56,364 bases of DNA from an uncultured archaeon (GTDB lineage Archaea; Aenigmatarchaeota; Aenigmatarchaeia; CG10238-14; SCSR01), in contig CAYNTH010000004.1 in NCBI GenBank assembly GCA_964400475.1, forward strand, positions 1-56,364, read 5' to 3'. A program made the position numbers and the translations under genes. Below, one piece after another: positions 1,796 to 5,829 of the stretch. The notes below the pieces were generated by a model. That model was not told where the DNA came from. It ran no database searches and saw nothing but the letters and a program-made list of their open reading frames with translations. Each line of letters begins with the position of its first letter. The first letter of the stretch is position 1.

Positions 1796-2446
1796 TTTCT
1801 TTACACATCCTCCTTTTTTATATCCTATAACATATATTCTTAACAAGCGAAAACTCTTTATTAAGAGCTCCACTTATTATTACTACAAGAAAAAGTTAAA
1901 TAGAACCAACCGTACCTTAACCCCGTACCAAAATCCTATTTACTTTTTTGTTAATCGATATTTAAATTCTTTTGTATTCTGCCTTCTATATGTTTCTAAA
2001 TGCGTTTTAGGAAAGCATGTTCTCAAGTATATACTTTTCACGCGGGTCTCTTTGAAAAAATATATTGTACAGTATATATTTTTTTAGCAACCCCCATAAT
2101 TACTATGGAAAGACATATATATTATAGAATATAATAAATGATATTCTATAAAGCATATATTACATAAAATAATATTACCCATTGCTGACCGGCAGAAATA
2201 ATATATAACTAATACGCTAACCGTCTTTTCGGAATCACCGCTATTTCACATATATACCGAACTACATAGATATAGGGATAATTTTAAATATCCAACCATA
2301 CTAATTTAACAAAGGTGAATGAAATGAAAGGTGAATGTTTTAATATTCGCTCAAACTGATTCTTGTCTAGACATTCCACCATTCACAAAATCAAAACGAA
2401 CTAGAGATATTTCTAGATTACTTAACAACATTTGGAGGTGTTATTA

Positions 2447-3413
2447 GTGAAGGCTATGGATAAAAAAGGGGAATATCGGAATCTGGTCTGAGTCCGATTT
2501 ACGAAAAAGAAGATCAATATTTAGAATACAAGGCGAAATAGTACGTTCGTCAAGAGAATTCCTTGAAAAAGAGGGATTCCTGGAAGTTCTCCCCCCGATA
2601 TTCGAAACATTTACAGACACGGGTATAGGTGATGCGGAGTTCTTCGAAATAGACTATTACGGCAAGCGCTACAAACTGATGAGCGCATTGACCATACACA
2701 AGCCCATACTTGTTACAAATTTGGGTGACATGTTCTCGTTCATGCCTTGTTCCAGGAAAGAACCGGCAGAATTGAAGAATATCAAAAGACACCTGTCCCA
2801 ATTCTACCAGATAGAGGTGGAGATGGAGGGTGGATTCGACAGGGCTGTTGACGAACTTGAGAAGATGACCAAATATATCATAGACAATGTGATAGACAGG
2901 TGTGCGGATGAACTCGACATTCTCGACAGGGATTTGAGCAGCCCGTCCATACCATTCAAGAGGATATCATACCAAGAAGCTGTCAAGATGGCAAAGGATA
3001 TCGGTATGGATATAACCGAGGATAATCCGATAGACTGGGATGTTGAGAAGAGATTGTCCGAACACATAGGAGAACCGTTTTTCCTAACAAGATTCCCTTC
3101 CAGGCTGATATCCGATAGGGGATTCTTGTACAAGGTCGACGGTAAAGAACTATTAGATTTTGACTTGATACTGCCAGAAGGACATGGTGAAGTATCGTCC
3201 GGGAGCGAACGCGAATTCGAATACGATAAAATAGTGGAGAAAATAGGTAGGGATCAGATAAAATCATTTAAATCTTACCTAGATATAATTAAATCAGGAC
3301 TCAAGCCTACATCGGGATTCGGTGTCGGTGTTGAGAGGTTGACTAAATTCATTTGTGGATTGGACGATATCTCAGAAGCTTCACCTTTTCCAAAGGTACC
3401 TGGAGTATCATAA
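2447..3413 (+). CDS. Archaeal asparagine synthetase A (AsnRS-like catalytic core, no anticodon domain); start out of frame with the main ORF
   Basis: The frame of ORF 2679..3413 stays open from 2451 with homologous-looking sequence (IFRIQGEIVRSSREFLEKEGFLEVLPP). Motifs RHLSQFYQIEVE, DLILPEGHGEVSSGSEREFEY, SGFGVGVERL, PFPKVPG match AS-AR proteins. The SD-linked GTG2447/ATG2456 is in a different frame. Confidence 0.8.
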
Positions 3414-3434: not shown

Positions 3435-4766
3435 ATGATGAAGAAAGAAGACGTAGAAATAGGTCCAGACGATATTGTAGAAATAAAGGACATAAAAGAA
3501 GGTAAAAAGAAGGGAAAAGTTAGGATCCGGGGGTGGATGGAGAATCAGAGGTCTAGTGGTGGGATACAGTTCCTGATACTAAGAGACAGGACTGGGAGGA
3601 TCCAATGCACGCTAGAAGAGAATGATGTGAATAAGAAATTATTCGAGGAGATGGACGATATTCAGCCTGAATCAGTTTTGGCAATAGAAGGAGAGGCCAA
3701 GAAGGACGATAGGGCTCCTGGTGGATATGAAATATCCGCTGACGAGATTGTCATAATATCCAAATCATTACCGGACTGGCCTATAGCCAAGAAGGAACAT
3801 GGACTCGAATTCCTACTGGATAATAGACATCTATGGCTGAGAAGCGAACAGATGCAGGCCATGCTCAAGATAAGGTCGAAAGTGATAAACATTGCCAGGA
3901 GATGGTTGTTGGATCACGGTTACTACGAGTTCCAATCGCCGATATTCATCTCAGCTGCGTGTGAAGGTGGATCTACTCTGTTCCCTGTGGAATATTTCGG
4001 GAAAGATGCGTACCTCACACAGAGTTGGCAGCTCTATGCGGAATCTGCCATATCGAGTATAGGCAAGATATTCACGGTTGCCCCGAGTTTCCGCGCGGAA
4101 AAATCGAGGACTAGAAGACACCTCACGGAATTCTGGCACCTGGAAGTAGAGGAACCTTTCTGTGATCTAGAAGGGACCATGAAGATGCAGGAAGAGTTCG
4201 TATCGCACATAGCCAACACACTGGCTAAGGAAATGCCCGAGGAATTGAAGAAATTCGGACGTGACCCAGAGGTACTGATGAACGTCAAACCGCCGTTCAA
4301 GAAAATAACCTACGACAAAGCGATAGAGATAATAAACAAAGAGGGCGGGGATGTCGAGTGGGGTGACGATCTCACATGGACGGATGAGAAGATATTGACA
4401 GAGAAACACAAAGTACCGTTCTTCGTTTACAAATATCCGAAAGGTGTGAAAGCATTCTACCACAAACCAGATCCTGAAAATTCTAAGGTCACGCTGTCAG
4501 CAGACTTGTTGGCACCAGAAGGATACGGGGAGTTGATAGGTGGTGGACAGAGAACACACGATTACGACCAGATGATGAAGAGGATAGACGAGGATGGATT
4601 GAATCCAGAGGATTATGAGTGGTATATAGACCTCAGGAGATGGGGCACTGTACCGCATTCGGGATTCGGGATGGGCATCGAGAGACTAATAATGTGGTTG
4701 CTGAAATTGGATCACATCAGAGATGCTATAGCGTTTCCAAGAACTATGACAAGAGCGAGGCCATAA
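3435..4766 (+). CDS. asnS: Asparaginyl-tRNA synthetase
   Basis: OB-fold anticodon domain (VRIRGWM...FLILRD), CEGGSTLF, FRAEKSRTRRHLTEFWHLEVE, motif 3 PHSGFGMGIERL. Confidence 0.93.
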   Translation: MMKKEDVEIGPDDIVEIKDIKEGKKKGKVRIRGWMENQRSSGGIQFLILRDRTGRIQCTLEENDVNKKLFEEMDDIQPESVLAIEGEAKKDDRAPGGYEISADEIVIISKSLPDWPIAKKEHGLEFLLDNRHLWLRSEQMQAMLKIRSKVINIARRWLLDHGYYEFQSPIFISAACEGGSTLFPVEYFGKDAYLTQSWQLYAESAISSIGKIFTVAPSFRAEKSRTRRHLTEFWHLEVEEPFCDLEGTMKMQEEFVSHIANTLAKEMPEELKKFGRDPEVLMNVKPPFKKITYDKAIEIINKEGGDVEWGDDLTWTDEKILTEKHKVPFFVYKYPKGVKAFYHKPDPENSKVTLSADLLAPEGYGELIGGGQRTHDYDQMMKRIDEDGLNPEDYEWYIDLRRWGTVPHSGFGMGIERLIMWLLKLDHIRDAIAFPRTMTRARP

Positions 4767-4847: not shown

Positions 4848-4919
4848 GCCCCAGTAGCTCAGTGGTAGAGCGTCTGGCTGTTAACCAGTAGGCCATCGGT
4901 TCGAGTCCGATCTGGGGCG
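4848..4919 (+). tRNA. tRNA-Asn (anticodon GTT)
   Basis: GCCCCAG/CTGGGGC acceptor, GCTC/GAGC D-stem, CT-GTT-AA loop, ATCGG-TTCGAGT-CCGAT T-arm. Confidence 0.96.
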
Positions 4920-4937
4920 CTGTCATTCTATTTTGAA

Positions 4938-5726: not shown

Positions 5727-5800
5727 GGGCCCGTAGCTTAACTTGGATAGAGCCGCTGGCTTCGGACCAGCTAATCAGGGTTCAAATCCCTGCGGGCTCA
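5727..5800 (+). tRNA. tRNA-Arg (anticodon TCG)
   Basis: GGGCCCG/CGGGCTC acceptor, GCTGG-CT-TCG-GA-CCAGC anticodon arm, CAGGG-TTCAAAT-CCCTG T-arm. Confidence 0.95.
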
Positions 5801-5829
5801 CTAATCCCCGTAATTGCCCGATTCATAAA

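Follow-up and report, generated by a model that had tools for sequence, protein, structure and literature searches.

A conserved leader reading frame with an invariant asparagine codon probably spans the lost start codon of an asnA-like gene in an uncultured archaeon

We analysed the 5' end of an asnA-like gene, coding for a putative asparagine synthetase, in a 56,364-nucleotide stretch of DNA from an uncultured archaeon of the Aenigmatarchaeota (contig CAYNTH010000004.1, positions 1 to 56,364; the whole stretch is called the window below). The gene has no canonical start codon and is overlapped, in another frame, by a short upstream open reading frame (uORF), named uORF2, led by its own Shine-Dalgarno (SD) sequence. 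Judged from sequence comparison, uORF2 is best read as a conserved regulatory uORF of an asnA-asnS-tRNA(Asn) operon. We consider it likely that the locus carries a conserved uORF cassette whose embedded asnA start has been lost in this genome. To the separate proposition that the uORFs sense asparagine we give equal weight for and against, and +1 frameshifting as the source of the enzyme, here or in the whole family, ranges from unlikely to tentative. The features at the centre of the argument are the following.

2434..2440, + strand: SD2, GGAGGTG, 6 nt upstream of GTG2447; same sequence and spacing in L021, L022, L052, L055 and L057
2447..2491, + strand: uORF2, (M)KAMDKKGEYRNLV, in the -1 frame relative to asnA, whose 5' end it overlaps; 24 tabulated homologues, with 3-nt periodicity
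2451..3413, + strand: asnA-like gene (asparagine synthetase paralogous to AsnRS), intact frame without canonical start
2469..2471, + strand: GGG where the family has its embedded asnA start (GTG), G2470 being the presumed changed base
2477..2482, + strand: CGG AAT, the rare Arg and invariant Asn codons of uORF2; presumed sensor and candidate +1 site (CGG-A)

The asnA-like frame is closed by TAG 2445-2447 and TGA 2448-2450 and then stays open on the + strand from 2451 to 3413 (320 codons). As a first-pass annotation of this DNA had claimed, it holds no ATG, GTG or TTG before ATG 2679, and the list of open reading frames (ORFs) calls only 2679..3413 (244 aa). The same annotation judged the start-less 5' codons to be homologous, which was borne out by two alignments. 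The Pfam family tRNA-synt_2 (PF00152) covers residues 19-316 of the 2451 frame (1.1e-42), and the Pyrococcus asparaginyl-tRNA synthetase (AsnRS) 1x54, aligned over its residues 130-430, matches from query residue 19, which corresponds to chain residue 130. Homology to the class II core already begins at residue 17-19, so that translation beginning only at 2679 would cost the protein its first helix and motif 1. Automatic calls of such asnA genes come out truncated or with a wrong start, that of the window being given as 244 aa (P0002), and the identical 244-aa product was found in no other assembly by exact protein look-up. Read-through of the TGA, or an alternative genetic code, was rejected because TAG 2445-2447 precedes TGA 2448-2450 in frame.

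Six nucleotides beyond the SD sequence GGAGGTG at 2434-2440, GTG2447 opens a 14-codon ORF, VKAMDKKGEYRNLV, that stops at TGA 2489-2491. GTG2447 and ATG2456 share one frame, -1 relative to asnA, so that a +1 step is needed to reach the synthetase. The 6-nt spacing and the MKA N-terminus, common to the window, L022 and L057, point to GTG2447 as the start of uORF2 in the window.

Orthologous loci were drawn from whole genomes, contig collections and exact-protein look-ups, and their 5' ends were analysed by script. The out-of-frame GTG2447/ATG2456 start, to which the first-pass annotation had drawn attention by its strong SD, recurred, with the frame relation unchanged, at about 25 related loci, too often for chance: an SD-led short ORF, in the frame that needs a +1 step, was present in about 25 lineages belonging to four families of a DPANN (Aenigmatarchaeota-like) class. 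The SD reads GGAGGTG, AGAGGTG or AAGGTGA and lies 5-6 nt 5' of the uORF2 start codon. The core, K-G-[DE]-x-[RQ]-N, was tabulated for 24 homologues (one per lineage) and aligned for a set of 19 sequences; the KGEYRN of the window is identical in G001, L021 and L057. The peptides are listed below, each ending at a stop codon except where three final dots are given.

G001: MMKGEYRN
L021: MKDNKLKGEYRN
L022 and L054: MKADTTKQGERRNLR
L052: MKTDGITKGERRNLA
L055: MRSKTTKGECRN
L056: MKGEIEKKGEYRN
L057: MKAESIKGEYRN
L018: MTVQTKKGDVRN
L051 and L058: M[SE]EGETTKGDRQNVF
L034: MNVKGDVRNLRK...
L035: MKGDSRNLGKTFA
L045 and L048: M[TK]GDSRNFET
L041 and L043: MK[SG]DSRNLRE..IFA
L030 and L033: MKGEGQN
L026: MKGKSRNNNW...
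L053: MFDDSGRGCGN
L044: MHKRNLERKIRYRP
L040: MVDKRNI
L031 and L032: MRNLLKK[DN]ESCA

Asn codons had been noticed at the frame junction from the window alone, and the Asn codon turned out to be the most conserved feature there, occurring in all 24 uORF2 copies (AAT 19, AAC 5). The codon before it is CGG in 18 copies, CAA in 3, CGT in 2 and GGG in 1 (n = 24). Among the aligned cores CGGAA is kept in 14 of 19, the exceptions being the CAA and CGT lineages. No such uORF was found upstream of asnS in genomes without asnA. When the pattern AARGGTGANNNNCGGAAY was searched over 371 genomes (the class-level set; a phylum-level search gave the same 371), 11 hits were obtained against about 12 for a control pattern; the true hits were all linked to asnA, and the others sit inside ordinary ORFs, for instance that of a probable CTP synthase. 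As far as these searches can tell, the cassette is specific to asnA loci.

The variable sites of the 19-nt core fall at positions 3, 6, 9, 10-12, 15 and 18, that is, on the wobble positions of the uORF and on one free codon, and the uORF wobble positions are the second positions of the asnA frame. Along a minimum spanning tree of the 19 cores, the changes scored in the uORF frame were 18 synonymous and 18 non-synonymous; scored in the asnA frame, they were 10 and 31. The window and G001 differ at two codons, AAA/AAG and GGG/GGT; neither difference alters the uORF peptide, and each replaces an amino acid in asnA; the same holds between L030 and L033 (GAA/GAG, GGT/GGA), and the change from CGG to CGT (L041, L043) is likewise silent in the uORF only. 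AAT has become AAC, again silent in the uORF and not in asnA, in 4 of the 19 aligned cores (L022, L056, L018 and L051), and L054 also has AAC in the 24-lineage table. This concentration of the variation on uORF wobble positions indicates that uORF2 is read as a protein, or at least kept in frame.

Within uORF2, the third base of the Gly codon, which is four-fold degenerate, is T in 16 of the 19 cores and never A or C. A GGT followed by G in the uORF reads, when shifted right by one base, as a GTG of the asnA frame, and the N-termini called for the relatives read [MV]-N-[IV]-G-[IT]. The Gly codon is GGG in the window, L018 and L051. L018 has GGG but an ATG one codon on (GGG GAT GTA), and in L051, as in L058, the asnA GTG lies further upstream within the uORF; in L041 the sequence is AGT-G, the Gly being lost but the GTG kept. 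In uORF1, the first copy of the cassette (see below), GGT-GGA retains the GTG even though the SD-like GGTGA is broken, which argues that the conserved element is a start codon and not an internal SD. Altogether, an in-frame GTG or ATG for asnA is embedded in the uORF in more than 20 lineages; the idea that the orthologues depend on recoding is therefore not supported, since most own such a start. This pattern of conservation indicates that the embedded GTG is a real start codon. In the window a single T-to-G change at 2470, silent in uORF2, has probably turned GTG into GGG and created the G4 run.

That run had been singled out by the first-pass annotation, which took an A6G4 stretch (A2462-A2467, G2468-G2471) either as a programmed shift site or as the place of a single-base indel or homopolymer error. 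Neither proposal was supported by the comparison. The assembled frame gives the family uORF exactly, and removal of a base would destroy it: with one base fewer, the KGEYRN frame is left without a start, so that an indel in the run is effectively excluded. Since the assembled length reproduces the family uORF, its SD spacing and its stop, the frame offset is ancestral. The A6G4 run itself is absent from the closest relatives (G001, L021, L022, L052 and L055-L057), the relatives reading AAGGGTGAA, AAAGGTGAA or CAAGGTGAA at this place. In the alignment of orthologues the out-of-frame SD-led start was thus conserved and the run was not; what stands of the programmed-frameshift reading is an ancient, conserved out-of-frame relation, and what finds no support is the indel and the A6G4 site.

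Three other lineages, L028, L040 (G093) and L044 (G075), share with the window the absence of any in-frame ATG, GTG or TTG between the upstream stop and the first conserved helix, and their ORFs are full-length and uninterrupted despite the missing start. Only a late in-frame ATG is available in L026 and in L031/32. Start-less intact asnA genes amount to 4 of about 26 uORF-bearing lineages, against 0 of about 10 without the uORF. Three further candidates were discarded, P0029 (L058) because an in-frame GTG is present, P0047 and P0051 because they are short through internal frameshifts. Internal lesions were seen in two loci only, as a 1-nt deletion in the YYGK region of L026 (250-300) and as a frameshift in an A9 run of L027 (1385-1400); these are either early pseudogenes or errors of low-coverage contigs. 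Four start losses in a 3-nt target against two internal lesions in about 960 nt are far from the expectation of neutral decay, by our own estimate and not by a formal test. The over-representation of start losses suggests that loss of the embedded start is tolerated, and we infer that another route into the asnA frame exists.

The leader contains two tandem instances of this design, an Asn-codon uORF in which the GTG of a main gene is displaced by one base to the right. The upstream copy comprises the following features.

2283..2290, + strand: TATA-like box TTTAAATA, by position and sequence the probable archaeal promoter of leader and operon
2313..2318, + strand: SD1, AGGTGA, 5 nt 5' of the uORF1 ATG; AAAGGTG is conserved in the leader alignment
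2324..2359, + strand: uORF1, MKGECFNIRSN then stop, the first Asn-codon leader cassette
2331..2447, + strand: ORF-X, VNVLIFAQTDSCLD..., 38 aa, from a GTG embedded in GGT-G of uORF1, in the +1 frame, to TAG 2445-2447

The TATA-like box is conserved in a four-way alignment and stands 40-42 nt 5' of the uORF1 start in at least 10 lineages. This fixed distance implies a very short 5' untranslated region, predicted to begin about at SD1. Homologues of uORF1 read VKGGCFNILEF, VKGERFNLG, VKGGRFNIA, VKGECFNLR, MGDYKNPSSPA, MGGRQNLGQI and LGGRQNFEARR, and an Asn codon was present in every copy found (13 loci). ORF-X is apparently the truncated remnant of an AbrB/MazE-like gene. In L030, L033 and L031/32 its frame encodes a 54-61-aa AbrB/MazE-like protein, which in L003 (G010) forms a fusion with AsnA; the match of the AbrB-like proteins to PF04014 is weak, at 18-22 bits, below the cut-off. 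In the clade of the window only about 15 N-terminal residues of ORF-X are conserved (V[ND]VLI..DSDFCLA).

We propose that the leader consists of two copies of one cassette, each made of an SD and a short ORF G-x-x-x-N with the GTG of the main gene inside GGT-G. Cassette 1 (uORF1), with about 10 nt of predicted transcript before it, overlaps the start of the AbrB-like gene, and cassette 2 that of asnA. Ribosomes translating the uORF would report the availability of Asn at CGG-AAU, through the supply of Asn-tRNA or through a short arrest peptide, and this readout would set the number of ribosomes entering the asnA frame. A riboswitch, T-box or other known RNA was rejected, no Rfam family matching the leader at E<=1 apart from a chance miRNA hit.

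Several observations weigh against this regulatory reading of uORF2. The fold of the leader RNA is not significant (minimum free energy z-score -0.65), and neither a terminator/antiterminator nor a structure sequestering the SD was detected in the leader. The alifold consensus reaches -4.7 kcal/mol with 2 compensatory pairs, and its helix TTCTGA/TCGGAA is weak and lies inside the coding sequence of ORF-X; as an RNA element it was rejected, being better explained by ORF-X coding (D-S-D-F-C-L-A) and the CGG-AAT codons. Part of the K-G-[DE] conservation may be a by-product of the embedded GTG-A, and the lineages compared share phylogenetic history and are not independent. Classical attenuators have the regulatory codon several times in a row; each uORF here has its Asn codon once, L026 (NNN) excepted. 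Moreover, the embedded start lies 8 nt 5' of the codon in the P site and would be hidden by a ribosome paused with AAU in the A site. By plain occlusion, a shortage of Asn-tRNA would then turn asnA down, the wrong direction for a biosynthetic gene. Three models would give the right one. Hungry-codon +1 shifting is the first. In the second, a stalled uORF1 ribosome would protect the mRNA 5' end, for which ermC-type stabilisation of mRNA by a stalled ribosome is a precedent. In the third, a short arrest peptide would stall the ribosome when free Asn is high; AAP and TnaC stall in response to their ligands.

How asnA would be translated in this genome can be explained in several ways. A +1 shift from uORF2, at GGG-G or CGG-AAU, is possible but short of an even chance. 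In its RF2-like, family-wide form, which we regard as rather unlikely, ribosomes would start at uORF2 and, when Asn-tRNA(Asn) is low, halt on CGG with the A site, at AAU, still empty, and shift +1 into asnA, the embedded GTG providing a basal level and uORF1 acting likewise on the AbrB-like frame. The main frame is indeed always +1 of the uORF, the regulatory direction is right, and the four lineages without an in-frame start keep intact ORFs. CGG is used in 18 of the 20 Arg cases of uORF2, though it is rare in the host genome (2.4 per 1000 codons), where AGR makes up 76% of Arg codons. ARAGORN found tRNA-Arg genes with anticodons TCT, CCT (with intron) and TCG, and none with CCG or GCG/ACG on all contigs, in a genome 88% complete and with split or multi-intron tRNAs possibly missed; CGG would then be read by wobble, by a tRNA-Arg(UCG) without CCG isoacceptor, and no tRNA that reads CGU/CGC was detected. 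This tRNA-Arg observation is also tied to 5727-5801 of the window. Ahead of Asn there nearly always stands an N-XX codon with A as the next base (CGG, CAA or GGG in uORF2; TTT, AAA, CAA or GAA in uORF1), so that 2 of 3 pairs survive a +1 slip for tRNAs with U34, and 2 of 3 are kept at CGG-AAY. An SD-like GGTGA lies 4 nt upstream of the CGG, resembling the stimulator of prfB (PMC5009743). If CGGA is read locally as one step, a single ORF VKAMDKKGEYGIWSES... results.

Against family-wide shifting stand the GTG or ATG start conserved in most lineages, with the uORF1 GTG kept even where GGTGA is broken, the poor re-pairing of CGG to GGA at position 1, and the non-slippery codons CGT in L041 and L043 and TTC-AAT in L028. 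By our own estimate the N-XX pattern is only marginal (about p=0.06) once the relatedness of codons is taken into account. The genes of this genome contain 18 in-frame CGG-Asn pairs where 19.9 were expected, which is no depletion, and CGG-AAY was for this reason rejected as an intrinsically shifty pair. Genome-wide quadruplet decoding of CGGN was also rejected: 393 in-frame CGG codons occur in 430 long ORFs, and ARAGORN reports no four-base anticodon and no tRNA whose anticodon loop is expanded. We regard it as rather unlikely that Asn starvation drives a +1 shift at the hungry Asn codon N-XX-AAY, as a tandem-duplicated autoregulatory recoding. A slip on the A6G4 run itself (AAA-AAA-GGG-G), by programmed +1 shifting or transcriptional slippage, is very unlikely. 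A tRNA-Gly(CCC) gene is present, for which GGG-G permits perfect +1 re-pairing, AAA-AAG permits that of tRNA-Lys, and the G4, born of the same mutation that removed the GTG, could partly compensate by a leaky slip. However, the run is not a conserved signal, being absent from the closest relatives; no pause is expected after GGG, because the next codon, GAA, is among the commonest (50 per 1000); L018 and L051 also have AAAGGGG yet use other starts; and six A residues are generally too few for transcriptional slippage to be efficient.

Alternatively, asnA could be translated here by non-canonical initiation or re-initiation at ATA 2460, ATC 2475 or ATC 2481, the in-frame candidates, which we think somewhat unlikely. 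An in-frame ATA also lies just upstream of GGA-AT in L040 and L044, which is weak evidence because ATA is the commonest codon (52 per 1000). An artefact at base 2470, in the form of a consensus error or a minor variant, or else a wrong homopolymer length, seems distinctly improbable. The assembly is a metagenome-assembled genome (MAG) of 15 contigs, one base would restore the family GTG, and miscalls of GGT as GGG are a recognised short-read error type. On the other side, the exact conserved uORF, frame and stop effectively exclude an indel, contigs of up to 164 kb suggest good coverage, and three other independent assemblies are also start-less. That asnA is newly silenced or weakly expressed here is a minority view among these outcomes, and early pseudogenisation, by which a gene dispensable in a host-dependent archaeon would just have lost its start, is unlikely. 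asnA occurs in only 26 of the 371 genomes of the class, and L026 and L027 carry internal frameshifts; but the 320-codon frame is intact, motifs 2 and 3 are preserved, and the excess of start losses (4) over internal lesions (2) argues, again by our own estimate, for tolerance.

The protein of the 2451 frame is 71-73% identical to its same-family orthologues and has no internal stops. Motifs 2 and 3 are present as RHLSQFYQIEVE and GFGVGVERL. The OB-fold family PF01336 was not matched, the protein consisting of a class II catalytic core without anticodon-binding domain. It matches the NCBIfam model NF005052 ('asparagine synthetase A') at 5e-80 with 269.2 bits, under the equivalog cut-off of 368, and NF005054 with 216 bits, also below the cut-off (309). 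Among solved structures, archaeal AsnA (3P8T, with 1.4e-32, and 1NNH) is matched at 1e-32 to 4e-34, and 1x54, an AsnRS catalytic domain, is slightly closer (1.6e-40). With a score below the equivalog cut-off, the protein is best called asnA-like. The putative conversion of Asp, ATP and NH3 to Asn draws its support from the context, in tandem with two genes.

3435..4766, + strand: asnS, full-length AsnRS with OB fold and class II core (Pfam PF01336, PF00152)
4848..4920, + strand: tRNA-Asn(GTT), found by ARAGORN

The adjacency of asnA and asnS is repeated in L003, L004 and L054-L056. The host genome, a MAG, has 649 kb and 40% G+C, and the named homologues come from Aenigmatarchaeota MAGs. The divergent upstream neighbour of the asnA locus is an FtsZ gene (647-1873, - strand; PF00091 and PF12327), an adjacency common to L052 and L054; about 575 nt of intergenic region lie between them, which is long for a 0.65-Mb genome. 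In a sister clade (L018 2290-2450, L051 825-935 and L058 378-525) an intron-bearing tRNA gene lies directly upstream of uORF2, with asnS further upstream; the intron sits after the anticodon loop, and the anticodon of L051 was read by eye as GTT (Asn). The Asn module appears to be kept in this clade in a different gene order. In L035 (G343), from 1113-1163 onward, uORF2 (MKGDSRNLGKTFA) precedes a 427-aa protein with an N-terminal extension before the class II core, and P0048, homologous to it, carries the OB-fold PF01336 together with PF00152. In L027, a distant relative, the asnA-like gene has a divergent upstream neighbour that codes for an AsnC-type transcription regulator (687-1130, - strand).

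Bacteria offer textbook cases of amino-acid-sensing leader peptides, and sensor uORFs are familiar from eukaryotes; we know of no described archaeal amino-acid-sensing leader peptide. The literature searched gave no archaeal leader-peptide example for asnA, and a duplicated leader-uORF cassette before an archaeal Asn module has apparently not been described before. It would be a compact, class-wide cassette in which the start of the regulated gene lies inside the sensing ORF, from organisms not yet cultured, and would open translational control in DPANN archaea to concrete tests. Should frameshifting prove right, it would be the first programmed frameshift driven by starvation for an amino acid and controlling the synthesis of that amino acid. 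With hungry-codon shifting, an RF2- or antizyme-style circuit would serve a biosynthesis gene in archaea, as the sole route to the enzyme in the four start-less lineages, the window genome included.

Among known systems, prfB opens with an SD-led short 5' ORF from which the main coding sequence is reached in the +1 frame; it has an SD-like element inside and a slow A-site codon that reports the level of the product (PMC5009743). The asnA locus resembles it in the SD-led 5' ORF, the +1 main frame and the SD-like GGTGA a few nucleotides before the conserved site. It differs in that the short ORF of most asnA orthologues contains a start for the main frame (the start-less exceptions are the window, L028, L040 and L044), in that an Asn sense codon would act as the sensor in place of a stop, in the poor P-site re-pairing, in its archaeal host and in that the frameshift is only proposed. 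Leader-peptide attenuators such as trpL, hisL and pheM likewise place a short ORF with the cognate codon before biosynthetic or aminoacyl-tRNA synthetase genes, whose expression is set by the pausing of ribosomes on that ORF. Of the hallmarks of leader peptides, a ribosome-binding site of its own at 5-6 nt, conservation across species and an invariant cognate Asn codon were found at asnA, and an alternative RNA structure was not. Further differences from the attenuators are a single codon instead of a run, a main start inside the uORF and not behind a hairpin, no terminator/antiterminator detected, the tandem duplication of the cassette and the archaeal host.

With the arrest uORFs (fungal AAP, TnaC, cat/cmlA, erm) the locus shares a peptide conserved with synonymous variation and, as proposed here, control by the uORF of access to the main start; its peptide, down to 7-8 residues (MKGEGQN, MMKGEYRN) or MRN..., is far shorter than AAP or TnaC. 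The enzyme is like archaeal AsnA (Pyrococcus AS-AR; 3P8T, 1NNH) in its class II core, its lack of an anticodon-binding domain and its length of about 300 aa, but it scores below the equivalog cut-off and is slightly closer to AsnRS 1x54, and the relative L035/P0048 keeps an OB-fold extension. The overlapping chain of uORF1, ORF-X, uORF2 and asnA, with stops near the next start, recalls translational coupling and termination-reinitiation (concept in PMC12548453), with the differences that the uORF stop follows the asnA start at a distance of 14 to more than 100 nt and that the uORF peptide and its Asn codon are conserved, for which simple coupling has no need. Finally, mycobacterial poly-Cys short ORFs sense the amino acid at the translational level (bioRxiv 10.1101/834739). 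Lying almost at the 5' end of its transcript, uORF1 is like those leaderless ORFs, and the mycobacterial system is the closest experimentally shown analogue of short-ORF sensing at the level of translation.

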